This document shows positions 134-20,350 of a stretch of 20,444 nucleotides of DNA, piece after piece; the stretch's first letter is position 1, and the number at the start of each line of letters is the position of its first letter. Made by a program: the position numbers and the translations under genes. Source of the stretch: Oligoflexales bacterium (GTDB lineage: Bacteria; Bdellovibrionota_B; Oligoflexia; Oligoflexales; Bog-1112); NCBI GenBank assembly GCA_045105515.1, contig JBGCDR010000204.1, positions 1-20,444 of the forward strand, in the 5' to 3' direction. Under the pieces are notes generated by a model. It saw only the letters and a list, made by a program, of their open reading frames with translations. It did no database searches and was not told the DNA's origin.

Positions 134-580
134 CTATTGTAGCAACTCAACTAATTCAATCAGAGTTCCTTCAGGCGCTTTGCAAAAAGTTAATCTTGCA
201 TATCCATCAGGTGAAGGCTGTGGGGGAGCATAAAACTCTATTCCTTTGTCCGAGAATGAATTGTAAATATTATCTAAGTCTTCAACAGTAAATGCCAAAT
301 GAGAAATACCTATACTGCAGGCTTCATTGAAAAATTTTTCACGGGGATGGGACAAATAGTGGAGCAATTCAATCTGGCAGGAGCCATCTCTCGACATTTT
401 TACAGTTCTTACTTTTATACCTTTTAAGTTGAGTGTTTTATCGAGAAAAATACCACTTTCAATCTGATCTTTTCTTACCTCGTATCCGAATAAAGAATGA
501 TAAAATTTTATCGATTCCTCTATGTTATCTGTGACAATCCCAACATGGCGCAAATCTGTAATTGAAGAAGTGAGATCCAT
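134..580 (-). CDS. VOC (glyoxalase/bleomycin-resistance/methylmalonyl-CoA epimerase-like) family protein
   Basis: 148 aa with the four VOC metal-ligand motifs: LRHVGIVT, QIELLHY, ISHLAFTVED, GTLIELVE. Starts 3 nt after the aminotransferase stop. Confidence 0.85.
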   Translation of the reverse strand: MDLTSSITDLRHVGIVTDNIEESIKFYHSLFGYEVRKDQIESGIFLDKTLNLKGIKVRTVKMSRDGSCQIELLHYLSHPREKFFNEACSIGISHLAFTVEDLDNIYNSFSDKGIEFYAPPQPSPDGYARLTFCKAPEGTLIELVELLQ

Positions 581-583
581 TTT

Positions 584-1957
584 TTATTTTCTCCCGTTTA
601 TACAGTAATCAAGAGATTCTCGCAGAACAGTGAGGGATTCGACTAGTGCATCATCTGGAATATTTATTGGAGGACCTAGTTTAAAGGTTCCCGAGCATGT
701 TCGAATCGAACATACTCCTCGTAGCATAGCTTGCTCAATCGCTTTATCCACCAGCTCCACCTCAAGGTCACTGCTACCAGGCTTTTTCAAGAAGATTCCC
801 CAGACCGCCCCCTGTCCATAGTAAGAATCTATGTATTCACAATCTCGCGTCCAATCCGACAAAAAATTGGATATAATCTCTCCTTTTCGCCTAGAAGCGC
901 TGAGCAAGTCTTCATCATGAATAACATCAAGCACTGCGATCGATGCAGCCATACCAACAGGATTACCACCATGGGTGCTATTCAATGACGGATCTAAATT
1001 AAGGAGATGTTCAGGACCAATAACTGCCGATACCGGAATAGAAGAGGACAGTGCCTTACCGCAACAAATAAGATCCGGATTAACATCATACCAGTCAAAT
1101 CCAAAATATTTTCCAGTTCTTCCAAATCCAGCTTGCACTTCATCAAATGCTAGAAGACATTCATGGTCGATTGTCCATTGTCTTAGTGCAGAAATATAGT
1201 CTTTGGGAAAAAATATAGCACACCAACCTTGGTATGATTCCGCCATAAAACCTGCGATATCATCAATATTAAGCCCCTGATCATCGAAAACTTTACGTAT
1301 GCTGTAATGGAAAAATTCATGTCCGGACATTTTTAGATCTTTCAACACCCAAGGATACGGGTAAGGTAGGGTAACAAAATTTGGATTTTGGTACCCAATC
1401 CATGCTTTGCCACCATGTTTCCCTCCCAACATTTGAGATCCCATAGTCTTACCGTGGAAGGATCCTTCAAACCCTGCAATTATTTTCTTCTTGGGATTTA
1501 TTTTGGCTCCATTTATGGTCATGATCTTTATTGCAGCTTCGGTAGATTCCGAGCCTGTTGATAGAAATATTACCTGATTAAGCTTCTTGGGTGCAATGGA
1601 GGTGATTCTCTCTGCCAATTGATTGCGAATTTCTGTTGGGTAGTTATAGGCATTCAACAAACCCTGCTCAGCTGTCCGATTTATGGCAGCTGTCACTCTA
1701 GGATGAGCATGGCCAATATTGGCAACGAATATGGTTGAAGTTAAATCAATCCATTGATTTCCTGATCGGTCAAAAATTTTATACCCACTTGCCTTATCCC
1801 AAACTATCGGTAACTGATCATTCATTGAATTAGGCATAAGCTCGAAAGATTTTTTCAAAATATTAGCTATTTCAGCGCTTGGATAGGGGCTTTTAATGGT
1901 ACGATGTTTGGTATTTATAGGGGGCACTGATTTAGGTTCGATATCAAAAAAATGCAT
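584..1957 (-). CDS. Class III PLP-dependent aminotransferase (GabT/ArgD fold)
   Basis: Motifs WIDLTS..FVANIGHAHP, STGSESTEAA, FHGKT, FDEVQAGFGRTG, CGKALSS (PLP lysine), THGGNP. AGAGGA RBS upstream of the ATG. Confidence 0.9.
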   Translation of the reverse strand: MHFFDIEPKSVPPINTKHRTIKSPYPSAEIANILKKSFELMPNSMNDQLPIVWDKASGYKIFDRSGNQWIDLTSTIFVANIGHAHPRVTAAINRTAEQGLLNAYNYPTEIRNQLAERITSIAPKKLNQVIFLSTGSESTEAAIKIMTINGAKINPKKKIIAGFEGSFHGKTMGSQMLGGKHGGKAWIGYQNPNFVTLPYPYPWVLKDLKMSGHEFFHYSIRKVFDDQGLNIDDIAGFMAESYQGWCAIFFPKDYISALRQWTIDHECLLAFDEVQAGFGRTGKYFGFDWYDVNPDLICCGKALSSSIPVSAVIGPEHLLNLDPSLNSTHGGNPVGMAASIAVLDVIHDEDLLSASRRKGEIISNFLSDWTRDCEYIDSYYGQGAVWGIFLKKPGSSDLEVELVDKAIEQAMLRGVCSIRTCSGTFKLGPPINIPDDALVESLTVLRESLDYCINGRK

Positions 1958-2051: not shown

Positions 2052-2843
2052 CTAGGTTTTTGGATTTGCTTCAAGATCTGATATTTTTGGCATTGCACCC
2101 CTTTTCGATTTGTTTTTTTTGTTCAAGAAAACCCGGATATCTCTTTCAAGATGATTCTTAATATGAAAATCTAAAAACTCAATATCATCTTCTTCGTCTA
2201 GCTCATAGGCACGTTCAGTTTCAAAAACCAAGACCCTATCCCCATGTAAAACTTTGCTCTCCTGGATTACTTTACTGCGCACTATATCTATGTATCCATT
2301 GGGTATATAGACATCCGGAAATTTTTGCCGCGGAGTATTAATATCTTCCAAAGAAAATTCTTGGGATATAGGACTTGCAAGCATTTGTCTGTTCTTCAGG
2401 AACCATTTGAAGGGGCTTTCGCTTGATTTGTGCGCTGACCGCAGAGAAGTGGCTGCTGGGTGCTGAGATAAATATTCAACAGCTTTATTCAAGGTTTTGG
2501 AGCATCGATTCGGTGTTGTAGGTCGCAAGTAAAGCCATAAGTCAGGTAAATTTCCTTCCTTCTCTGGGAACCAGTTGGTAACATGAGACATACATTCATA
2601 GTCGGTAGCGTTATTGCCAGATATCTCTTTTGGTCTCAAAAATGGCGTTTCAGCGCCATAAGAATTAGCCAAGCTTGCAAATTCCTGAGAATCCGTCGAC
2701 ACTATGATTCGTTCGATACAGGGTGTGCTCTTGGCAACTGCTATCGAATAGGCCATTAGAGGGTGACCATCAAAAGCTAATATGTTCTTATTGGGAATAG
2801 CGGTCGATCCGCTTCTGGCTGGAATAATCGCCCAAATGCTCAT
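2052..2843 (-). CDS. neuA: Acylneuraminate cytidylyltransferase family (CMP-ulosonate synthetase)
   Basis: AIIPARSGSTAIPNKNI, IVSTD, PFLRP, LRPTTP.R, NGYIDI and acidic ELDEEDD motif. GGAG RBS upstream. Confidence 0.9.
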   Translation of the reverse strand: MSIWAIIPARSGSTAIPNKNILAFDGHPLMAYSIAVAKSTPCIERIIVSTDSQEFASLANSYGAETPFLRPKEISGNNATDYECMSHVTNWFPEKEGNLPDLWLYLRPTTPNRCSKTLNKAVEYLSQHPAATSLRSAHKSSESPFKWFLKNRQMLASPISQEFSLEDINTPRQKFPDVYIPNGYIDIVRSKVIQESKVLHGDRVLVFETERAYELDEEDDIEFLDFHIKNHLERDIRVFLNKKNKSKRGAMPKISDLEANPKT

Positions 2844-2861: not shown

Positions 2862-3641
2862 TTAATTAATTGAAATAGTCTGCCCACCATCTACATAAAA
2901 ATTAGACCCTGTTATAAAACTGCTGCGATCAGATGCTATAAATGCCACAACATCGCCAATCTCCCTAGGGTTTCCAAATCTCCCTAGTGGAACCTTTTCA
3001 TTCAACATACATTGAACCTTTTGTTTATCATCTCGCACTTTGGCTTCCCAGGTTCCACCGGGAAATAAAATGTTACCGGGTGATATGGTATTTACCCTTA
3101 TTCCCTTCGAGCCTAATTTTATTGCGAGATTTTTAGATAGTGAATTTATCGCTGATTTTGCCACTGAGTAGCCTGTCGGTGCACCTATAACTTCGGATCC
3201 AGCGATTGAGGAGACAAAAATTATGTTGCTGTTAGTTCGTTTTTCTAAATATGGCAACGAAAGTCTTACCGCATAAACCGCTGAATTCAAATTAGTTTGA
3301 AACGTGGATTCCCATGAATCTTCGTCCGGTAAAGCTTCAGAGGATGAAGTTCCAGAACCTACATTGCAGACTAATATATCGATTTTTCCAAAATGATTTG
3401 TAACTTGGTTTATCATATTTTTAACTTTTGTAGGACTTCTGAAGTCACTTTGAATAGCTAACAGAGCTTCTTGCCCAAATCTATTTACTAAATTGAACTC
3501 AGCTTTTTTCAGATGGTCTATATTTCTCCCGGTTATGACAACCTTGCATTTTTCAGTTAGTAGCGTCTCAGCTATGCCTAGGCCAATCCCTTTGGATGAG
3601 CCTGAAATTACGACAACTTTATCATTTAGTTTTAGGTCCAC
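2862..3641 (-). CDS. Classical SDR oxidoreductase
   Basis: GTG start preceded by GGAG. GSSKGIG Rossmann motif, SSIAG, catalytic YSVAK, RVNTISPG, SFITG..FYVDGG. Confidence 0.9.
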   Translation of the reverse strand: MDLKLNDKVVVISGSSKGIGLGIAETLLTEKCKVVITGRNIDHLKKAEFNLVNRFGQEALLAIQSDFRSPTKVKNMINQVTNHFGKIDILVCNVGSGTSSSEALPDEDSWESTFQTNLNSAVYAVRLSLPYLEKRTNSNIIFVSSIAGSEVIGAPTGYSVAKSAINSLSKNLAIKLGSKGIRVNTISPGNILFPGGTWEAKVRDDKQKVQCMLNEKVPLGRFGNPREIGDVVAFIASDRSSFITGSNFYVDGGQTISIN

Positions 3642-3849
3642 GGATGCTCCGCATGAGGATAGAAAATACGCGCTATTATCGTAGAAAGTTAAATACTTCC
3701 TGCATTTTCCAAGTTTATCATTTGCTATCTATGATGTCGAAGTAGATTTTTTGGCCGGGAGGTTTATAAACTTACGTTTATATTGCTTCGTTTAACGGTC
3801 AATTATTGATAAATTGAAAAAGCAATAATGAAATTTGAGGTATTTATTC

Positions 3850-4665
3850 ATGTTTAATTTAGAGCGAAAAGTAGCCGTAATAACTGGTGGAGCTGGTCTA
3901 CTTGGAAAAAAACATGCCGAGGCTTTACTGAGTTGTGGTGCGAAAGTAGTACTAGTAGATATTGAAGAAGCTCGTTTGGAAGCAGCGGTAGAAGAGATTG
4001 GAGATAAACACAACAAAAATATTTATACCCATGTTGTGGATATTACCTCGGAGTTGCAAGTACGGGACTTAAAGAACTGGTTAGTTTCAGATTTTAAAAG
4101 ATTTGATATTTTAATTAATAATGCAGCTATTAATCCAGCCGTTTCTAATACAGGTGCCATCAAAAATAGCAGTAGATTAGAAAATTTTGACCTAGATTCT
4201 TGGGATTTAGAAATGAGAGTTGGCTTGACAGGGGCTTTTCTCTGTTCGAAATACTTGGGCAGCATGATGGCTGAATGGAAGAGCGGAAGTATTATTAATG
4301 TCTCATCAGATCTAGGTATTATTGGCCCTAACCAAGAAATTTACAAAGAGGAGGGGCTCCATGATCGAGATCAGTCAGTAAAGCCGGTAACTTATTCTGT
4401 GATTAAATCTGGTTTAATTGGATTGACTAGGTATTTAGCAACCTACTGGGCAAGAAGTAATGTACGATGTAATGCAATTTGCCCTGGTGGCGTGTTTAAT
4501 AACCAGCCAGAAGATTTTGTAAACAGGTTATCAAAATTGATCCCTCTTGGTAGAATGGCATCTCTAGATGACTATAAGGGTGCAATTGTCTTTTTAAGCT
4601 CAGATGAATCTAGTTATATGACAGGTTCAACACTTATTGTAGATGGAGGCAGAACCTGTTGGTAA
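3850..4665 (+). CDS. SDR oxidoreductase, PtmA-like type found in nonulosonate clusters
   Basis: TGGAGLLG, NNAA, KPVTYSVIK (YxxxK), CPGGV..NQP, YMTG..LIVDGG. Start placed at ATG 3850 after GAGG at 3837-3840, rather than TTG 3835. Confidence 0.88.
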   Translation: MFNLERKVAVITGGAGLLGKKHAEALLSCGAKVVLVDIEEARLEAAVEEIGDKHNKNIYTHVVDITSELQVRDLKNWLVSDFKRFDILINNAAINPAVSNTGAIKNSSRLENFDLDSWDLEMRVGLTGAFLCSKYLGSMMAEWKSGSIINVSSDLGIIGPNQEIYKEEGLHDRDQSVKPVTYSVIKSGLIGLTRYLATYWARSNVRCNAICPGGVFNNQPEDFVNRLSKLIPLGRMASLDDYKGAIVFLSSDESSYMTGSTLIVDGGRTCW

Positions 4666-4670
4666 TGGGT

Positions 4671-5501
4671 TTAATGTATATTATCAAAAAAATTTAGTAC
4701 ATAATCCCTGTAATCGCACAATACTTCTTTATGATTGTTGTTGGTGGCTCTGGCTGTCTGTAAAATAAAGTCACTTTGGTAGTTTATGTTCTTAAGGCAT
4801 TTAAAAACTTGGCAAAAATCAGCATTCCCTTGTCCTAGCGGGACAGTTTCACCTCCTTTCAACCTATCTTTGATATGAACATGACAGATTCGATGACCGT
4901 AAGCTTGGATCTCTTCAGAAGGGGAGTACCCTAAAGAAGCACTATTACCAATGTCGTAAGTTATACCGAAAGAGTCAGCAGGGAGTTTGTCAATAAAATG
5001 TGCGAGTTTACTGGGCCCTAAGTCAGACTCAAAGGTGATTTTAACTCTTTTAAGTTTTAAAAAGTTATGTAATGAAAGCAATGTGTCAATTATAGTTTTT
5101 TCTTGATCGATATTTTCTACTTTCCCATTGTCAACTAAAGGGATTAGCAATTTCTCGATATTGATCTCAGATGCGGCGGAAATCACTGTTTTTAGGCAGT
5201 CGATTTTTTCCTGTCTGTAGACCCCCTTGTAGAAGGGATCTTGCATAAAGCAATCTCCAGTAATGGAGGATATTTTGATATTATTTTCTGACGATATTTC
5301 TCTTACTTTTTCTTTGCTTTCAAGAAGAGGGTTTTGATAAAGGCCGTCAATATCAAGCGTCCATTCCATTAGCTTGAAGCCACAAGCTTGTGCGATTGCA
5401 AATTCATTTTTCCAGAATTGTTTTGGAAAGCACTGGATTTTCCCGTCGATTATTGGCGATAAACGCCCTTGCATAAAACCAACTTTTTCTTTTAATTCCA
5501 T
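4671..5501 (-). CDS. Sugar-phosphate isomerase/epimerase, xylose-isomerase-like (AP endonuclease 2) TIM barrel
   Basis: GFMQGRLS N-terminus, ITFE, YDIGN, HVHIKDR, LGQGNADF, ILQTAR metal-site motifs. Confidence 0.82.
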   Translation of the reverse strand: MELKEKVGFMQGRLSPIIDGKIQCFPKQFWKNEFAIAQACGFKLMEWTLDIDGLYQNPLLESKEKVREISSENNIKISSITGDCFMQDPFYKGVYRQEKIDCLKTVISAASEINIEKLLIPLVDNGKVENIDQEKTIIDTLLSLHNFLKLKRVKITFESDLGPSKLAHFIDKLPADSFGITYDIGNSASLGYSPSEEIQAYGHRICHVHIKDRLKGGETVPLGQGNADFCQVFKCLKNINYQSDFILQTARATNNNHKEVLCDYRDYVLNFFDNIH

Positions 5502-5717: not shown

Positions 5718-6566
5718 TTGTCGGTATTTATTATCGCTGAAATAGGAATAAATCATAATGGTGATATTGATTTAGCTAAGCAGCTAATCGATCAATCAAA
5801 AAAAGCTGGCGCAAATGCTGTGAAGTTTCAAAAAAGAACTTTAGACCTAGTTTATGAAAAAAGTGAGTTGCAGAAAGACAGAGAAAGCCCATGGGGTACT
5901 ACCAATCGGGATCAAAAGCAGGGGTTGGAGTTTTCACTCGAAGAATACAAAGAGATTGATGCTTATTGCAAAGAAAATAACATCTGTTGGTTTGCATCAG
6001 CATGGGATTTGGAAAGTCAAAAGTTTCTTCAACAATTCGATTTACCGTATAACAAAATCGCTAGTGCAATGCTAACTCACAAAGATCTTTTGGAAATGGT
6101 TGCTCATGAAGGCAGGCATACCTTTATATCAACAGGTATGAGTACCCTTGAAGAAATTTCAGAAGCTGTAAATATTTTTAGAAAGATCAACTGTCCATTT
6201 GAACTAATGCACTGCAATAGTTCTTACCCCGCAAAGATTGAAGAGTTAAATTTAAGGTGTTTACAAACACTAGCTAGAAAATTTGACTGCAAAGTAGGAT
6301 ACAGTGGACATGAAACAGGTCTTCCAACAAGTGTCGCAGCCGTTGTACTGGGAGCAACATCTATAGAGCGTCATATTACATTAGACCGTTCTATGTACGG
6401 ATCTGATCAGTCAGCTTCAGTAGAGCCAGTAGGTTTTGAACGCATGGTTCGCGATATAAGAGCTGTGGAATCTGCCTTGGGTGATGGAGACAAAAAAGTT
6501 TATTCTAGTGAGGTGCCTTCATTGAATAAACTACGGAGAACAAAAGACTATGAAGCATCCATCTAA
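5718..6566 (+). CDS. neuB: N-acetylneuraminate synthase (NeuB) family PEP-dependent ulosonate synthase, short form without C-terminal AFL/SAF domain
   Basis: TTG start with strong RBS. FIIAEIGINHNGD, AVKFQKR, KIAS, ISTGMS, MHCNSSYP, GYSGHE, IERHITLDR..YGSDQ.AS. Only 282 aa. Confidence 0.92.
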   Translation: MSVFIIAEIGINHNGDIDLAKQLIDQSKKAGANAVKFQKRTLDLVYEKSELQKDRESPWGTTNRDQKQGLEFSLEEYKEIDAYCKENNICWFASAWDLESQKFLQQFDLPYNKIASAMLTHKDLLEMVAHEGRHTFISTGMSTLEEISEAVNIFRKINCPFELMHCNSSYPAKIEELNLRCLQTLARKFDCKVGYSGHETGLPTSVAAVVLGATSIERHITLDRSMYGSDQSASVEPVGFERMVRDIRAVESALGDGDKKVYSSEVPSLNKLRRTKDYEASI

Positions 6567-7713
6567 TGCACTCGATGGGAGGTTAGAGTATTTCTTTCTC
6601 AAAAATAAAAGTCTTCTTTGTATCGAGAAAGAAATTATACAAGGATATGAAGTATTATCTAGCTGTATTTCCAATGGTAATAAAATCATGACATGTGGAA
6701 ACGGGGGAAGTGCGGCAGATGCTAATCACATAGTGGGTGAATTAGTAAAAAGTTTTGCTATCAAAAGAGAGCTGCCTTGTAAAGATAAAGAAAAAATAAA
6801 AAGTAGCCTAACAAGTGAAGCGGATAATTTTATTCAAAATCTAGAAGGTGGAATTCCAGCCATTTCATTGATAGAAAATTCATCTTTCCTAACTGCATTC
6901 GCGAATGATATTAACTATGAATACGCAATAGCTCAAAGTTTGTATGTTCTAGGAAAGGAAAAAGACGTTCTAATTGCAATTTCTACCTCTGGAAATTCAC
7001 AAAATATTATTAATGCAGCGAAGCTTTGCCATGCATTTGGCATTAGGTGTATTGGTCTAACAGGAAACAGTGGCGGTAAATTGGCGGATATAGCAGATGT
7101 AGCTATCCAAGCTCCCTCCGAAAAAACACATGAGATACAAGAATTCCATCTTCCAATTTACCATTTTTGGTGCAGCTTGCTTGAACTTGAGTTTTTTCAT
7201 CCTGAGTTCGATAGAGGCTTTGATTTCTCTAATTATCAAAAAAGCATGCCTACTGAAAATATTAAATTAATGATTTTTGATTTTGATGGAGTCTTTACCG
7301 ACAACAAAGTATATTCCCTATCAGATGGAAATGAAGCTATAGTATGTGATAAAGCCGACAGCCTCGGGCTTAACTTTCTAAAAAAGGGAGGCATAAAGCC
7401 TTTAATAGTTTCCATGGAAACTAATGAAGTTGTCAAAAAGCGCTGTGAAAAAATGAGAGTTAGTTACTTTGTGGGGATTGATAACAAAATAGAAACAGTG
7501 AAAAAGATTGCCAAAGAACAAAATCTTAGACAGGATCAGATAGCTTATGTAGGCAATGATATTAATGACCTAGAAGCAATGGAATGGGTTACCATGCCCA
7601 TTGCAGTAGCTGATGCCCATCCTAAAATCAAGTCCGTTGCCAAATTCATATCTAGGAGAAAAGGTGGGCATGGCGCAGTCAGAGATGCGGTGGAATTTGT
7701 CTTAAATATTTAA
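6550..7713 (+). CDS. Fusion of GmhA-like SIS phosphosugar isomerase and KdsC-like HAD phosphatase
   Basis: N-terminal CGNGGSAADANH..GEL, AISTSGNS.N, GLTG..GG, IQE.H...H..C (GmhA). C-terminal IFDFDGVFTDN, YVGNDINDL, GGHGAVRD (KdsC-type HAD). One continuous ORF overlapping neuB by 17 nt. Confidence 0.88.
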   Translation: MKHPSNALDGRLEYFFLKNKSLLCIEKEIIQGYEVLSSCISNGNKIMTCGNGGSAADANHIVGELVKSFAIKRELPCKDKEKIKSSLTSEADNFIQNLEGGIPAISLIENSSFLTAFANDINYEYAIAQSLYVLGKEKDVLIAISTSGNSQNIINAAKLCHAFGIRCIGLTGNSGGKLADIADVAIQAPSEKTHEIQEFHLPIYHFWCSLLELEFFHPEFDRGFDFSNYQKSMPTENIKLMIFDFDGVFTDNKVYSLSDGNEAIVCDKADSLGLNFLKKGGIKPLIVSMETNEVVKKRCEKMRVSYFVGIDNKIETVKKIAKEQNLRQDQIAYVGNDINDLEAMEWVTMPIAVADAHPKIKSVAKFISRRKGGHGAVRDAVEFVLNI

Positions 7714-7734: not shown

Positions 7735-9465
7735 ATGGAAATCCCTATGAGATTTATGTCGTTATTTTGGAATACAATTCTAAATATTGGGCAAAAAAGA
7801 ATGCTTCCTTTACTGATTATTGGAAGCCTTCTATTTAGCCTTTTTGAAGCAGGGGGCATAGGTCTATTATGGATAAATATTGAATTTTTAACAAAGGGAC
7901 TCACGGAGCAATCAATTTCCGTTTGGATGTTGAAATATATTCCAATACTGACGGAAGAAAATTTTTATACACTCATGGGAATGGGTCTGATACTATTCTT
8001 CATAATTAGAATGGTATATATGACATTTTTTACTTTTTTTCAGTATAGCTATACCCAATCAATTTTTAGAAATATTAGTAAACGTTTGATGTATTCGCTG
8101 CTAAATCAGAGTTATCAAAATTATTTAAAAAACAACACCTCAGAATACAAAAGATCTCTTGTGATGGATGTTAATTCTGTTTCAAGCATTGCCATTTCTG
8201 CAATTCAAGTTGCAGCAGAGCTTTTTACATTATTATGTATTGGAGGATTCTTGTTTTATCAGTTTCCTCAGACAATTTTTGTAGTATCTCTGATAGTAGT
8301 TGTTTTCTTTGGTGTGTCATACATTTCTACTTTTGATTACATTAGAAAACTAGGTTCTGAAAAGAACTATTACCTTGGAAAAATAATTAAATCACTCGAT
8401 GAAATATTCTCAAATTTCAAGCTACACAAGATCGATAATACCGAAAGTTATGCAGTTAATAAACTGTCTAAATATACTCTGCCTTATAGCAAAACACAAA
8501 TAAAGTATGGCACGGTTCAATCATTGCCTAGGGTAGTATTTGAAACAGTGGGATTTATTGGAATAACAGTAGCTTTGTTGTTTAATACTATATCTAGTAC
8601 GAATATTGAGCATATCCTGAAAGAGGTTACTATATTATTAATAGCCATAATGAGAATTGTTCCATCTATTAATCGAGTTATATTAGCATTAAATACCATT
8701 TCATTTGCTACTGAAGCCCTTTTCAAAGTAGCAGAATTGCTGAATCTAAAGCCTGAAATATCAGGTCGGATTGAAAATAAGGTAGATTTTAAAAGACTTA
8801 TAGAGGTCAAGGACCTAAGTTTTTCATTCGTAAAGAACAAAAGTATGTTTCGTCACTTGAATTTCAGAATAGAAAAAAGTGATAAAATTGGGATAATAGG
8901 AGCCTCTGGGAATGGGAAAAGTACTCTTATGGATCTTTTGCTTGGTTTCTTGTCGGCTAATGCTGGTCAAATATTGATTGATGGAACTCCTCTAAATAAA
9001 ACTGGGTACCGATCATGGCGATCGCTATTTGGGTATATTCCACAGTCAGTGTTTCTTTACGACTCCAACGTAGCTGAAAACATTTGCAATGGGCTTAAAA
9101 AAAGAGAAATGCGGCTGAATGAAGTTATTGATAAAGCGATGATTAAAAGTGTTCTTGAAAATAGGGAGGGACTAGAGACTGAGGTGGGTGAAAATGGAGT
9201 CCAATTATCAGGTGGACAGAAGCAACGAATTGGTATCGCAAGAGCATTATATAAAAATCCTGAAGTTATTATTATGGACGAAGCCACCTCAGCCCTCGAT
9301 TTACAGACAGAAGCAAATCTAATAGACGAGATTTTTGACGCTGCGATAGATAAAACATTGATAATTATTTCGCACAGAAAAGAAACACTAAGAAAATGTA
9401 ACAAGCTATTTTCAATAGAAAATTATCAGATAAAGCCCATTGAAAAATCTAGTCTTTATATTTAG
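7735..9465 (+). CDS. ABC transporter, fused permease/ATPase (PglK/Wzk-like glycan flippase)
   Basis: Hydrophobic N-terminal TM domain, Walker A GASGNGKS, GYIPQ, signature LSGGQKQR, Walker B IIIMDEATSALD, ISHR. Flippase role inferred from context. Confidence 0.88.
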   Translation: MEIPMRFMSLFWNTILNIGQKRMLPLLIIGSLLFSLFEAGGIGLLWINIEFLTKGLTEQSISVWMLKYIPILTEENFYTLMGMGLILFFIIRMVYMTFFTFFQYSYTQSIFRNISKRLMYSLLNQSYQNYLKNNTSEYKRSLVMDVNSVSSIAISAIQVAAELFTLLCIGGFLFYQFPQTIFVVSLIVVVFFGVSYISTFDYIRKLGSEKNYYLGKIIKSLDEIFSNFKLHKIDNTESYAVNKLSKYTLPYSKTQIKYGTVQSLPRVVFETVGFIGITVALLFNTISSTNIEHILKEVTILLIAIMRIVPSINRVILALNTISFATEALFKVAELLNLKPEISGRIENKVDFKRLIEVKDLSFSFVKNKSMFRHLNFRIEKSDKIGIIGASGNGKSTLMDLLLGFLSANAGQILIDGTPLNKTGYRSWRSLFGYIPQSVFLYDSNVAENICNGLKKREMRLNEVIDKAMIKSVLENREGLETEVGENGVQLSGGQKQRIGIARALYKNPEVIIMDEATSALDLQTEANLIDEIFDAAIDKTLIIISHRKETLRKCNKLFSIENYQIKPIEKSSLYI

Positions 9466-9498: not shown

Positions 9499-10812
9499 AT
9501 GAAATATAGAATACTTATATTTAATGACAATACAAAAAGAGATTTACTTGGTCTAAAAATAATCCAAAAAGAATTTATATTGGCTGGTTGTAAAGCGATT
9601 ATCTGCAATCCTGATACTGTGAAGTACAAATTTAGACTGCTGAAACCACACGCTTTTATTGCGGCTAGAGGAGACCATTGGGAAGCAAAAGAAGCTGCAA
9701 AGGCCTGCTTAGTCTACATAGTCCCAGGCGAAGGCGCGCAGCAAACTAAGGAAACCATATTATCGGTATTTATGGGACGTGCATATTGGAAACTAACAGA
9801 TGTTCATTGGATTAAGAAATGTTTTCTTTGGAATAGAGATACGAGAGATTGGTTACTAGATACGAAGCTTTTTAAGAATCATCAGTTAACTGTTTCTGGG
9901 AACACTAGGCTTGATATTTATAGAAATCAAAAAGTCCTAAGAAATTTATTAATAGGTAAACCAAAAGAGTTTGTATTGGGTGTAGCTTTTTCATCAAAAT
10001 CTACAAGTACTTATGATGGTAAGCTTAAGTACGCTGAAAACTATTTTAATATGCATCGGGACTTAAACTTTCCTATTACTCCACCTGGCAGAAATTTTGA
10101 GGACATATGTTGGAGAGATCATATCATTCTCAGATTGTCTATGAGATATATTAAAAGGTTTTTGGATACCATGAATGGAAAAATCATTCTTAGACCAAGC
10201 CCCTTTGAGGACCCAAAAACATTTAGATTTCTTGAAAAACTATACCCTGGTCGAATTTCTATCGAATCAAACCAGCCTTTACCTGAATTTTGCTCCCAGA
10301 TTGACACACTATTAACTTGCTGGTCTACAACTGGCCTCGAAGCATTAATCATGAATAAGCCAGTAATTTCAATTGCTGGGACCATAGATCAAGAGCATCT
10401 ATTTAGACACGTATCGGCAAGGGCAAGCGGATTTGAAGGCTATGTGAAATACTTTCATTATCCGAAAACAGAGCAAGAATTGATGTCTCTCGTAGACTTA
10501 GCGGCTCATAAAAAATTGGCACCATCACCAAGAACAGATCTACCAGAACTTCTAGAGAAAATGTATAACTGGCCGTCAGAATCGGCCGCTTCGAGCATCA
10601 TAGTCGAAAAAATACTTTGCGATTTAAAAACTGATTGTCCTGCTACAGGTTGGAAGAGTACTTTTACATATCCAATCCCAGATTTTATGGCTCCAGTTTT
10701 CTATACGCTTCGAAATTATATACGTTATATAAGAAGCGGTTTTTTTAACACTTACTATGGTTTTCGCAAGGTAAATGATAAGAAAATTTCTAAGCTTGTG
10801 AAGCAGATGTAG
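9499..10812 (+). CDS. Surface-carbohydrate biosynthesis protein, putative GT-B fold transferase
   Basis: 437 aa ORF with GNTRLDIY, ILRPSPFE (RPHP-like) and STTGLEALIMNKPVI motifs typical of GT-B/capsule synthesis proteins. Confidence 0.55.
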   Translation: MKYRILIFNDNTKRDLLGLKIIQKEFILAGCKAIICNPDTVKYKFRLLKPHAFIAARGDHWEAKEAAKACLVYIVPGEGAQQTKETILSVFMGRAYWKLTDVHWIKKCFLWNRDTRDWLLDTKLFKNHQLTVSGNTRLDIYRNQKVLRNLLIGKPKEFVLGVAFSSKSTSTYDGKLKYAENYFNMHRDLNFPITPPGRNFEDICWRDHIILRLSMRYIKRFLDTMNGKIILRPSPFEDPKTFRFLEKLYPGRISIESNQPLPEFCSQIDTLLTCWSTTGLEALIMNKPVISIAGTIDQEHLFRHVSARASGFEGYVKYFHYPKTEQELMSLVDLAAHKKLAPSPRTDLPELLEKMYNWPSESAASSIIVEKILCDLKTDCPATGWKSTFTYPIPDFMAPVFYTLRNYIRYIRSGFFNTYYGFRKVNDKKISKLVKQM

Positions 10813-18151: not shown

Positions 18152-19596
18152 TTAGGTCATAGGTTGGTATAGTGAAGTATATCTGATACTATTCCTGCCA
18201 TCTAATGGGCGAAATTTTTTTGCATCATTCGCAACTCGTTCACTTGCTTCTGCGTAGATCTCATTATCATTAATCAAATCTGATAGATAGTTTCGATAAT
18301 CTTTTTCTGAATTAGCAACATAAGTAGAATCTAAATATGAGAATTCTTCAACTTCATTGATAAGTTTGACATTGATAGATATCACATTAGCATGGGGAGC
18401 CCAAAAGCAGATGGAAGAACCATAGGAAACTAATATATCGCAAAAAGGCAGAATGCAGCTGGATTTCTTTTTGGTTATTATGATGTCATACTGTTTTTCA
18501 AGAAATAAATAGTCAATAATATCCATTTTTGGATGTAACAAAATAATTATGTTAGCATCGAGATCCAATGCTGGTTTTAGTAGTTTATTATTCCAAGACC
18601 AATGTTCATCCCAAGTTTCTACAATATTGTGTTCCTAATAATTTGCTAAAGCTATGGCTATAATTTTTTTTCCGTTATTGATATTGTGCTCTAATCGAAA
18701 GTTAAGATTGCTATTGGATATTTTAGCATTATACATTTCATCTCTTTCTACATGGCCAACAATTTTAACTTTGTTGTAGTCTACGCCATCTTTTATAGCC
18801 CTTTCTCTTGAGTGTTAATCTTCAACGCATAAGATGTCTGCGAAATTAAGGCCGCGAATCCAAGGGTGTTTTGGAAGTGTACCTAAAAAATACATGGCCA
18901 AAATTTCATGAGGAAGAAAAAATAAACAAGAATTATGTTCTAATACTTGGTTGGGCATTAATTTAGCTATTAGTCTATTTATGTATGGACTTTTCGGGTT
19001 TTGAGAAGAAATGATGGGCCGTGTTCTGCGGTTATAGCATACCGATTGCGTAAAAAATGCCGCGTATATTACAATGATTTGACACTTTAATTTTTTTGCT
19101 GTGCTGTATAGTGATGCAATAGGTCCCCCGACAGTATCGACATAAGTATAAATAGCGGTGACATTGTTGTACTTAATAAGCAGGTGAGCATATGCAAGGA
19201 AAAGAAAATCTTGGATGATTTGACTAACTGTGTTTATGCAAACCGTAAGAGATAGATTTCTGAACTTTTCGGGAAGACGGTCTATTAAACTACTTAATCT
19301 TGAGTTAATATATGCACTAATTTTTAATGGAAAAAATAGCAAATAGAAGAGTGTTAGGAAAATATTAGGATTTTTTATGTCAAATTTAATAGATGATGGT
19401 GATATATTCCAGCTAAAATATATCCATTCAATTTTTTTTTGTCACACCATTCTGAATTTCTTAGTGTCAACTAGGTAAGAACCATGACAGGTTTCTGCCT
19501 AGACCTTGCCATTGATTCAGATATTTTAGCTAAAGATTGAAATGCTGTTTGATTCAATGCCAGCATTAAGCAGCTTTTTTGTTTAGAATTATTCAT
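18152..19596 (-). pseudogene. Disrupted ~480-codon GT-B-like surface-polysaccharide protein
   Basis: ATG 19596 behind GAGGA. TAG at 19471-19473, frameshift at the A9 run 19432-19440, then in-frame TAA 18815-18817 and TAG 18635-18637. ORFs 18815..19342 and 18152..18568 are in the same frame and the linker translates sensibly (KVKIVGHVERD, KKIIAIAL). Confidence 0.75.
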
Positions 19597-19602
19597 TTAT
19601 CC

Positions 19603-20350
19603 TCAAACCATCCCTTTGGCTAACCAACCGCCATCTACTATTAGATCAGAGCCGGTAATATATGACGAAGCTGGGCTTCCTAAAAACAGTGCAACACCGA
19701 TGAGGTCTTCACATACTCCTATTAAGTATTGTATTGCTTTCACGTTGAGATTTTAGATGAGGATCCATGAAGCTTGCGCTAGTCATGTCAGTCTGAATAT
19801 ATCCAGGAACTAAGTTATTGACTCTAATACCATACCTTCCTAGGTCTACAGCAAACGATTTTGTTAGCATTTTAAGAGCACTCTTTGAAGATACATAGCT
19901 CGGATTGCCAGGAAAACCTGCATCTTGAGCTATGCTCGTAATATTTATGATGGATCCATACCCAAATTCAATCATAGGCTGCTTTATTAAATTAGTTATA
20001 ACAAACGAGGATTCGACATTTATTTTATGGGTTGATACAAAATCATCCAACATTTTTTCAGTAAAAGTATCTTCCCGAGATGGTATTGTTACTCCTGCAG
20101 CATGGATGAAAATTTCTATGTTGATTCTATCTGCTAGGATTTTATTTATTTGAGATATTATTGATTCTGTATCATGTAGATCTACGTTAAGGAACTTTAT
20201 TCCATGAGAATTTTCTGGAGTTCCTCTGGCTATCCCTAAAACATTAGCACCTGCATCAACATAGGCCTTTGCAATTGAAAAACCAATACCTCGAGATGCT
20301 CCAGTAATTAGTGTCTGGTCGGAAACTAAATTCTTGCCTTTGCAACTCAG
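19603..20350 (-). pseudogene. Disrupted SDR oxidoreductase
   Basis: Frame open from 20350 through LITGASRGIG, HAAG and YVSSK, but with no ATG/GTG/TTG before the Rossmann motif (in-frame TAA at 20357-20359). Frameshift near 19720; the conserved tail EDLIGVALFLGSPASSYITGSDLIVDGGWLAKGMV* lies in another frame, ending TGA 19603-19605. Confidence 0.82.

Follow-up and report, generated by a model that had tools for sequence, protein, structure and literature searches.

A short NeuB synthase and a GmhA-type/KdsC-type fusion in an Oligoflexales genome: a recurrent cassette with a predicted ten-carbon product

The synthase, the fusion and their host

The DNA considered here, referred to as the window, is a whole stretch of 20,444 nucleotides from an Oligoflexales bacterium (GenBank assembly GCA_045105515.1, contig JBGCDR010000204.1). 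Its main subject is a pair of overlapping forward-strand genes. A short neuB (5718–6566) begins at a TTG codon with AAGGAG 6 nucleotides upstream and encodes 282 residues; an open reading frame (ORF) of 387 codons (6550–7713), fusing a SIS isomerase domain to a HAD phosphatase domain, overlaps its 3′ end by 17 nucleotides. A pattern for this junction matches once in the window and not at all in 100 shuffles. An earlier, sequence-only reading had recognised this arrangement, and the domain models bear it out (PF03102 for the synthase; SIS_2/SIS and TIGR01670 for the fusion). It had also placed a NeuA-type cytidine monophosphate (CMP) transferase nearby, which is indeed found on the opposite strand at 2052–2843, and had noted that NeuC, PseB and LegB were missing. 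Models for these three have no match among the 19 window ORFs scanned; the NeuC of the host lies in a separate cluster. The feature is real. The cassette of which it is a copy is widespread, and no characterisation of it was found in the literature searched.

5718..6566, + strand: putative SAF-less NeuB-family phosphoenolpyruvate (PEP):aldose-phosphate synthase of the Q-loop clade, 282 residues (PF03102; tree)
6550..7203, + strand: SIS domain of the fusion (residues 1–218), predicted insertion-type GmhA-like phosphosugar isomerase
7246..7713, + strand: HAD domain of the fusion, predicted KdsC/YrbI-family ulosonate-phosphate phosphatase (TIGR01670; Glu290/Lys301)

The synthase matches PF03102 (E 5e-76), and its model resembles 6NCS and 1XUU with a template modelling (TM) score of 0.85. 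It lies outside the canonical NeuB, LegI and PseI enzymes: there is no SAF domain, its scores fall below the NeuB_NnaB (265.7 vs 399.65) and PseI (212.3 vs 340.25) cut-offs, and the window holds no NeuC, LegB or PseB partner.

The N-terminal half of the fusion is a SIS_2/SIS domain that aligns with Burkholderia pseudomallei GmhA (E 1e-34). In an AlphaFold model of the fusion (mean predicted local distance difference test score 92.5), this half matches GmhA 2X3Y with TM 0.80–0.84, normalised to target length. His60, Glu64, Gln197 and His205, which we take to be the catalytic residues by analogy with GmhA, align with those of the B. pseudomallei enzyme; together with Asn119, Asp120 and the NGGS and TSGxS motifs, they are invariant in all groups of a set of 297 domains, NeuB-linked or not. 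The window domain has the GmhA fold and the full set (His/Glu/Gln/His, NGGS, ND, TSGxS), and in these respects its earlier description as an intact GmhA-type domain stands. In others it needs qualification: the domain is of an insertion type, with about 27 extra residues in a GmhA-like fold; such domains have substitutions of their own (K67, S68, Q129, Y204), and the score against the gmhA model TIGR00441 is below cut-off. Standalone insertion-type domains were collected from at least 79 loci by a GTDB scan with the fusion alignment, plus one unfused cassette. Among the matches listed, HddA-like kinases adjoin 15 of the 79 and HddC/GmhB-like genes 12.

The HAD domain (residues 233–387) belongs to the YrbI/KdsC subfamily, with a TIGR01670 score of 108.8 against a cut-off of 106.95 and the motif residues D244, D246, S288, K313 and G335–D340. 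It falls outside the KdsC equivalog proper (PRK09484, 115.6 vs 208). Its closest solved relative is 3MMZ (TM 0.87 for the AlphaFold half, root-mean-square deviation 1.6–1.8). Glu290 occupies the position at which the KdsC-type entries 3N07, 3MN1, 2P9J and 4NAV carry Arg; this position, after motif II, is presumably a specificity marker. The spacing of Glu290 and Lys301 equals that of Glu56 and Lys67 in 3E81, the Bacteroides phosphatase for the 9-phosphate of 2-keto-3-deoxynononic acid (Kdn), and these are the two positions mutated to Ala in 4HGQ and 4HGR. The pair is kept in 117 of 118 aligned fusion HADs, although the window domain scores only 106.4 against the cut-off of 180 of the Kdn-9-phosphate phosphatase model NF058599. 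Calling the domain KdsC-type is right at the level of the family, with the refinement that it has the Glu/Lys pair of 3E81 where KdsC-type entries carry Arg.

The host genome measures 6.29 Mb and is 91% complete. It separately codes for kdsA, kdsD, hldE, a gmhB-like gene and a canonical gmhA; this housekeeping gmhA directly adjoins a type I phosphomannose isomerase gene, near a flagellin gene (G000:C65:23011-25146). A second nonulosonate cluster (G000:C158, about 8600–24300) holds NeuC, two NeuBs (345 and 318 residues) and two NeuA-type genes. Because the host codes for these elsewhere, the window cassette is extra to its routes to 3-deoxy-D-manno-octulosonic acid (Kdo), heptose and classical nonulosonates. 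That the fusion might serve housekeeping Kdo synthesis was considered and rejected, as the genome carries kdsA and kdsD at other sites and its HAD does not have the Arg of KdsC. No other KdsC-like gene was found in the 91% complete genome, so moonlighting of the fusion is possible.

Recurrence of the cassette and clades of short NeuB

The fusion is not peculiar to this genome. A domain-architecture search, proposed with the sequence-only reading, found both domains joined in one order or the other in 118 of the best 120 homologues: 91 are SIS-HAD proteins (query included), 27 are HAD-SIS and two have SIS only. The 27-residue insertion is found in most SIS-HAD proteins, a canonical GmhA in nearly all HAD-SIS proteins, and Clostridia carry a more divergent HAD-GmhA fusion. 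Ten genomes, by eye, are apparently common to the match lists for fusion and NeuB, among them the sources of the three best NeuB matches other than the query's own, which is indirect evidence that the two genes lie together.

Direct evidence comes from a metagenome scan with a DNA pattern made of a GmhA C-terminal motif followed by a HAD N-terminal motif, with no NeuB term. At least 120 stretches were found, 80 of them with flanks; 12 of the 80 had no room for a neighbour, leaving 68. A short NeuB lies within 1.5 kb of gmhA-HAD in 66 of these 68, the exceptions being L122, where there is little room, and L090. Fused genes make up nine of the 80 flanked loci, and the remainder have adjacent gmhA and HAD genes. 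HldE occurs in one of the 80, and neither GmhB nor the GHMP motif was found among them. The notion that the isomerase and the phosphatase bracket a NeuB that works on an aldose phosphate, one acting before it and one after, is strongly supported by comparative genomics.

Within the host's own phylum (131 genomes), the fusion was seen only in this genome and a Q-type NeuB (see below) in one other. The pattern had no match in viral contigs, and no full-length fusion was found on plasmids. In E. coli, the only matches were N-terminal ones of 69 nucleotides; there is therefore no structurally characterised E. coli antigen to serve as an anchor.

Besides those of the pattern loci, short NeuBs were sampled from Pseudomonadota (15 of 401 genomes), Desulfobacterota (15 of 251) and Bacteroidota (85 of 251, of which 30 matches were retrieved); the truncated locus L255 was left out. 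In a tree built without any characterised Kdn synthase sequence, the combined set forms two monophyletic clades, about 47% identical to each other: Q (76 sequences, window included; support 0.998) and Y (43 sequences; 0.926). The label 'Kdn-like' for the Y clade draws on Kdn genetics in Streptomyces and on the Nonomuraea member of the clade (L205). Fixed differences between the clades cluster in the β2-α2 loop (positions 45–47, 57, 63, 66 and 67), with a further one at Tyr227/Trp. A review, as far as consulted, says of human NanS that this loop favours the phosphorylated substrate (PMC8208679).

All 61 typable NeuBs beside gmhA-HAD are of the Q type; a further five are truncated. Q-type enzymes occur in about 3–4% of sampled Pseudomonadota genomes and 2% of sampled Desulfobacterota, and the 53 full-length members of the selected set (L001 included) form 44 clusters at 90% identity. 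For NeuA and the tailoring genes listed below, neighbours were counted in 46 Q loci of at least 8 kb and in 12 Y loci; a NeuA homologue is present in 38 of the 46. One locus holds both clades side by side, in a tandem of gmhA, HAD, Q-type NeuB, Y-type NeuB, NeuA and a third, divergent NeuB (L115:5833-10059).

All 30 NeuBs fetched from Bacteroidota (L274–L303) are of the Y type, nearly all with an upstream HAD and some with a PtmA-like SDR, and the Y-type gene looks like a housekeeping envelope-sugar gene in this phylum. On a Methylomagnum plasmid (L207), split transketolase-like genes, a class III aminotransferase and an SDR precede a Y-type NeuB and HAD. An atypical short NeuB with NeuA lies in a phage-like stretch of a contig (L352, G1426:C1), and the large phage records LR756508.1 and MH319754.1 carry NeuB homologues of about 45% identity.

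A predicted ten-carbon ulosonate and its alternatives

What is observed is the set of genes, their folds and conserved catalytic residues, how often they occur together and how the clades divide; every substrate and product of the cassette named in this section is predicted. Among known systems, the cassette appears to follow the logic of the phosphorylated Kdn route, but its genes fall outside the Kdo and the classical neuraminic (Neu), legionaminic (Leg) and pseudaminic acid (Pse) pathways. Like Kdn synthesis in Prymnesium parvum and in Bacteroides thetaiotaomicron (BT1714 as Kdn-9-phosphate synthase, the phosphatase 3E81 and a CMP-Kdn synthetase), as covered in the sections of PMC6200933 drawn on here, it pairs a NeuB-family synthase, predicted here to act on an aldose phosphate, with a Glu/Lys KdsC-family HAD and a CMP-synthetase. 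Unlike that pathway, it adds a GmhA-type isomerase fused to the phosphatase, its NeuB falls in a separate clade that has the Q loop and no SAF domain, and SDR, TIM-barrel and aminotransferase tailoring genes accompany it.

The label 'Kdo-style', given to the cassette earlier, fits the order of steps, which in the Kdo pathway is likewise SIS isomerase (KdsD), PEP aldol synthase (KdsA), HAD phosphatase (KdsC) and CMP-transferase (KdsB). It does not fit the parts, of which synthase, phosphatase and CMP-transferase resemble the Kdn route: the synthase is a NeuB and not a KdsA, the SIS domain is GmhA-like and has no CBS domains, the HAD has Glu for Arg and the CMP-transferase is NeuA-like. The KdsA-type synthase and the KdsD-type SIS-CBS isomerase lie outside the locus, where the host codes for them separately. 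With the ADP- and GDP-heptose pathways (GmhA, HldE/HddA, GmhB, HddC), the cassette shares the GmhA fold and catalytic residues, and relatives of its insertion-type SIS are found in HddA/HddC/GmhB clusters. Unlike them, the window and nearly all cassette loci are devoid of heptose kinase, GmhB and HddC, the partners of the cassette GmhA being NeuB and a KdsC-family HAD.

The origin of the isomerases is informative. In an IQ-TREE phylogeny of 40 hand-picked GmhA sequences (17 NeuB-linked and 23 other), monophyly of the NeuB-linked proteins is rejected (approximately unbiased test, p 1.2e-9) and at least five label changes are forced; one NeuB-linked GmhA is sister (100/100) to the GmhA of an HldE+GmhB cluster. 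Since the NeuB-linked proteins are not one clade, ordinary sedoheptulose-7-phosphate isomerases have probably been recruited into the cassette repeatedly. The simplest account of recruitment from separate branches would be that the cassette needs an activity common to them, namely isomerisation of sedoheptulose 7-phosphate.

Genomes without a detected heptose kinase also point to heptose 7-phosphate. Among Clostridia, short NeuB occurs in three of 399 scored genomes, and a gmhA match accompanies it in all three vs nine of 57 controls (Fisher p=0.006, with a small sample of kin that are not independent). In the two typical Q-type Clostridia, a HAD-GmhA fusion directly after neuB is the only gmhA match of the genome; the third has an atypical NeuB (49% identity), and its gmhA-like match lies on a different contig. 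No HddA- or HldE-class kinase was found in four cassette-bearing genomes (G1217, G1057, G454 and G131), the best HldE-class score being 54 bits vs a cut-off of 345; these genomes are incomplete, which weakens the point. In G1057, the cassette shares its locus with flagellin, a Maf-type (MptE-like) gene and NeuA. Subject to assembly gaps, NeuB would be the only recognised fate of heptose 7-phosphate in these four.

On the strength of repeated GmhA recruitment and of cassettes in genomes without a detected heptose kinase, the reading favoured here, and judged somewhat more probable than not, is that heptose 7-phosphate and PEP yield a ten-carbon (C10) homologue of Kdn, which is then dephosphorylated, CMP-activated and modified in its side chain. 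The fused SIS domain would convert sedoheptulose 7-phosphate to D-glycero-D-manno-heptose 7-phosphate, whose C2–C5 have the manno configuration used by Kdn synthases. The short NeuB would condense this aldose with PEP in an aldol reaction to 3-deoxy-dec-2-ulosonate 10-phosphate, and the fused HAD domain would remove the phosphate. The resulting 3-deoxy-dec-2-ulosonate would equal Kdn plus one CHOH, with C4–C8 as in Kdn. The NeuA-type enzyme would activate it with CMP; SDR, TIM-barrel, aminotransferase and VOC genes may then modify the side chain by oxidation, epimerisation and amination, and the product would be transferred into a surface glycan exported by an ABC transporter. The tailoring step is proposed by analogy with the acinetaminic module aciABCD/E, whose post-synthase SDRs are themselves proposed to change side-chain stereocentres, according to the parts of PMC5595891 consulted. 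The aci module differs in acting on CMP-legionaminic acid, and the two are likened by role alone.

The sequence-only reading had already offered a ten-carbon product as one option; that interpretation is partly supported overall, and the ten-carbon product is the part preferred here. Several observations weigh against it. Besides hldE and a gmhB-like gene, the host carries a second gmhA, and heptose 7-phosphate therefore has another outlet here. L090, one of the nine fused loci, lacks a NeuB for about 9.5 kb on each side and lies near GT9 heptosyltransferase genes; in it (L090:1085-10687), the SIS-HAD fusion stands upstream of ABC transporter, HAD, 2-hydroxyacid dehydrogenase and GT9 genes. 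When loci are selected by NeuB instead of gmhA-HAD, gmhA lies within about 8 kb in only three of 20 Q loci and about 12 kb off in a fourth, with none seen nearby in the other 16; it is near one of nine Y loci, and there beside HldE. The pattern itself would miss the Y-type HADs of Bacteroidota, while five of those from Desulfobacterota fit it. In the window domain, Ser68 replaces the Arg that follows the catalytic Glu in canonical GmhA, and the TIGR00441 score of 139 falls short of the cut-off of 209, as do the scores of many housekeeping gmhA copies. Genome-wide co-occurrence is uninformative in Gram-negatives: gmhA is matched in 49 of 50 short-NeuB genomes vs 71 of 80 controls, counts that include DiaA-like matches. 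Each of the 21 Q genomes tested matches gmhA at some site, and HldE, present in 48 of 51 short-NeuB genomes, does not discriminate. Finally, the Kleikamp spreadsheet (PMC8157484) gives the mass of the unmodified C10 sugar as its 1,2-diamino-4,5-methylenedioxybenzene derivative, 414.127, only as a theoretical composition and not as a match.

Some of these points suit a different account, in which NeuB is a Kdn-9-phosphate synthase acting on mannose 6-phosphate and the GmhA-like domain either interconverts fructose 6-phosphate and mannose 6-phosphate or is a passenger. It would agree with the 16 Q loci without a nearby gmhA. The fructose phosphate has the same C3–C5 configuration as sedoheptulose 7-phosphate. 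The bacterial and algal synthases characterised for the phosphorylated route take mannose 6-phosphate (PMC6200933, in part), and in Serratia a NeuB that carries a COG1082 isomerase domain as a fusion makes Kdn, according to the sections of PMC9000132 consulted. The HAD has the Glu/Lys pair of Kdn-9-phosphate phosphatase; since this pair is common to Y-type loci too, it signals a 'Kdn-like ring' and says nothing on chain length. The nine-carbon account would require the same switch of specificity in several unrelated GmhA lineages, in which no common active-site change was seen, and the host already owns a type I phosphomannose isomerase. It also leaves unexplained why all the typable NeuBs beside gmhA-HAD are of the Q type and why Q and Y enzymes stand side by side in L115. 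We regard it as unlikely, though it merits serious attention.

The kinase evidence bears on another possibility, that two separate pathways merely adjoin, the SIS domain feeding ADP- or GDP-heptose synthesis through HldE or HddA elsewhere while NeuB and HAD make a C9 sugar. The hldE and gmhB-like genes of the host and the NeuB-less fusion of L090 near GT9 genes agree with this, as does G441, where the operon gmhA is the only gmhA match and HldE is present. Yet the cassette occurs in four genomes with neither heptose kinase found, heptose kinases are nearly absent from cassette loci, the host has a housekeeping gmhA of its own, and repeated fusion to a ulosonate-phosphate phosphatase implies one pathway. 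Separate pathways are accordingly thought improbable.

A different chain length is held to be equally improbable. The SIS domain might act on octulose 8-phosphate, giving a C11 product, or on xylulose 5-phosphate, with an eight-carbon epimer of Kdo as the result. Octulose 8-phosphate is the substrate of the GmhA-like domain in LmbN, and the substitutions peculiar to insertion-type SIS domains could reflect such a change. However, canonical GmhAs serve the same NeuB clade, and no recurring transaldolase- or transketolase-like cluster was seen, by eye, among the ORFs of the 80 loci.

To extend the ten-carbon reading from this locus to the clade is a slightly better than even proposition: the Q-loop SAF-less NeuBs may be a widespread family of 3-deoxy-deculosonate-10-phosphate synthases, which branch off from heptose 7-phosphate towards CMP-activated C10 homologues of sialic acid. 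To our knowledge, characterised PEP-condensing sugar synthases reach nine carbons at most (C7 for 3-deoxy-D-arabino-heptulosonate 7-phosphate, C8 for Kdo, C9 for Neu, Kdn, Leg and Pse). No description of the cassette or of a deculosonic acid was found in the literature searched, which left out most subscription journals. In that literature, C10 ulosonates are reported only as mass-spectrometric evidence and of the amino-deoxy type. The case is Magnetospirillum gryphiswaldense, with evidence for a CMP-activated C10-backbone ulosonate (PMC8157484; bioRxiv 10.64898/2026.04.20.719630; both in part); its sugar is of a di-N-acetyl deoxy type with two N-acetyl groups (marker 311.10, Pse/Leg plus CH2), and no genes are assigned to it in the reported sections. 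The unmodified product predicted here would be nitrogen-free and more oxidised, and the likeness would be confined to the C10 backbone and CMP activation.

If the proposal is true, living cells would reach C10 homologues by lengthening the aldose, and the cassette would be the first route to a higher-carbon ulosonic acid with genes assigned to it. The Q clade, now labelled 'N-acetylneuraminate synthase', would have to be re-annotated. C10 sugars, diversified by epimerisation and amination on lipopolysaccharide, capsules and flagellin, would span Pseudomonadota, Desulfobacterota, Clostridia and the phylum of this genome. They would constitute a new surface sugar that matters for phage receptors and for the specificity of sialidases, and open a chemoenzymatic route to extended sialic-acid analogues.

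Neighbouring genes

A divergent block upstream of neuB codes for a TIM barrel, two SDRs, the NeuA-type cytidylyltransferase, a class III aminotransferase and a VOC protein. Its tailoring genes, which the sequence-only reading had passed over, travel with the Q NeuB clade. A transporter gene follows 21 nucleotides 3′ of the fusion.

134..580, − strand: VOC/glyoxalase-fold protein, co-travelling with the aminotransferase (PF00903)
584..1957, − strand: class III aminotransferase, predicted side-chain tailoring (PF00202)
2052..2843, − strand: NeuA-type CMP-ulosonate synthetase (PF02348; 115 bits with the PseF model, no more than 39 with KdsB models)
2862..3641, − strand: SDR oxidoreductase SDR1, predicted tailoring (PF13561)
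3835..4665, + strand: PtmA-like SDR, SDR2, predicted tailoring (best model PRK09186, 169.5 bits, below cut-off)
4671..5501, − strand: xylose-isomerase-like TIM barrel (AP_endonuc_2), predicted epimerase (PF01261)
7735..9465, + strand: PglK/MsbA-like ABC flippase (best model PglK NF050066, below cut-off)
9499..10812, + strand: surface-carbohydrate protein, candidate CMP-sugar transferase (weak TIGR04396 and NF046086 matches, below cut-offs)

Close homologues of the aminotransferase are found in ten of the 46 Q loci, of SDR1 in 15, and the VOC protein in nine; the TIM barrel is present in 24. All four are missing from the 12 Y loci. SDR2 homologues occur in 24 Q loci and four Y loci. Homologues of the ABC protein are found in 19 of the 120 pattern loci, and those of the 9499..10812 product, a candidate CMP-sugar transferase, in L133 and L135. 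A promoter scan gave results at chance level (two seen vs 1.7 expected).

The class III aminotransferase was also considered as a KdnA of the kind that makes 8-amino-8-deoxy-Kdo (Kdo8N), and rejected, as we take KdnA to be a DegT-family enzyme. Upstream of the unfused cassette of L001 (3968–6244), a pair of Fe-alcohol-dehydrogenase-like and DegT-like genes was seen by eye, presumably reminiscent of kdnB/kdnA.

Towards the end of the contig, at about 19607–20350 (− strand), lies a third SDR like those of related cassettes, frameshifted near 19715, and the ORFs at 18152–19342 resemble pieces of one larger gene. This split SDR and the fragmented ORFs may reflect pseudogenisation or assembly error. 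Between 13718 and 18137 (+ strand), genes for ACP-like, FkbH, GNAT-like and MaoC-SDR proteins make up a module for acyl loading, a possible source of a glyceryl-derived or hydroxyacyl substituent; the loci L093 and L157 have FkbH as well.

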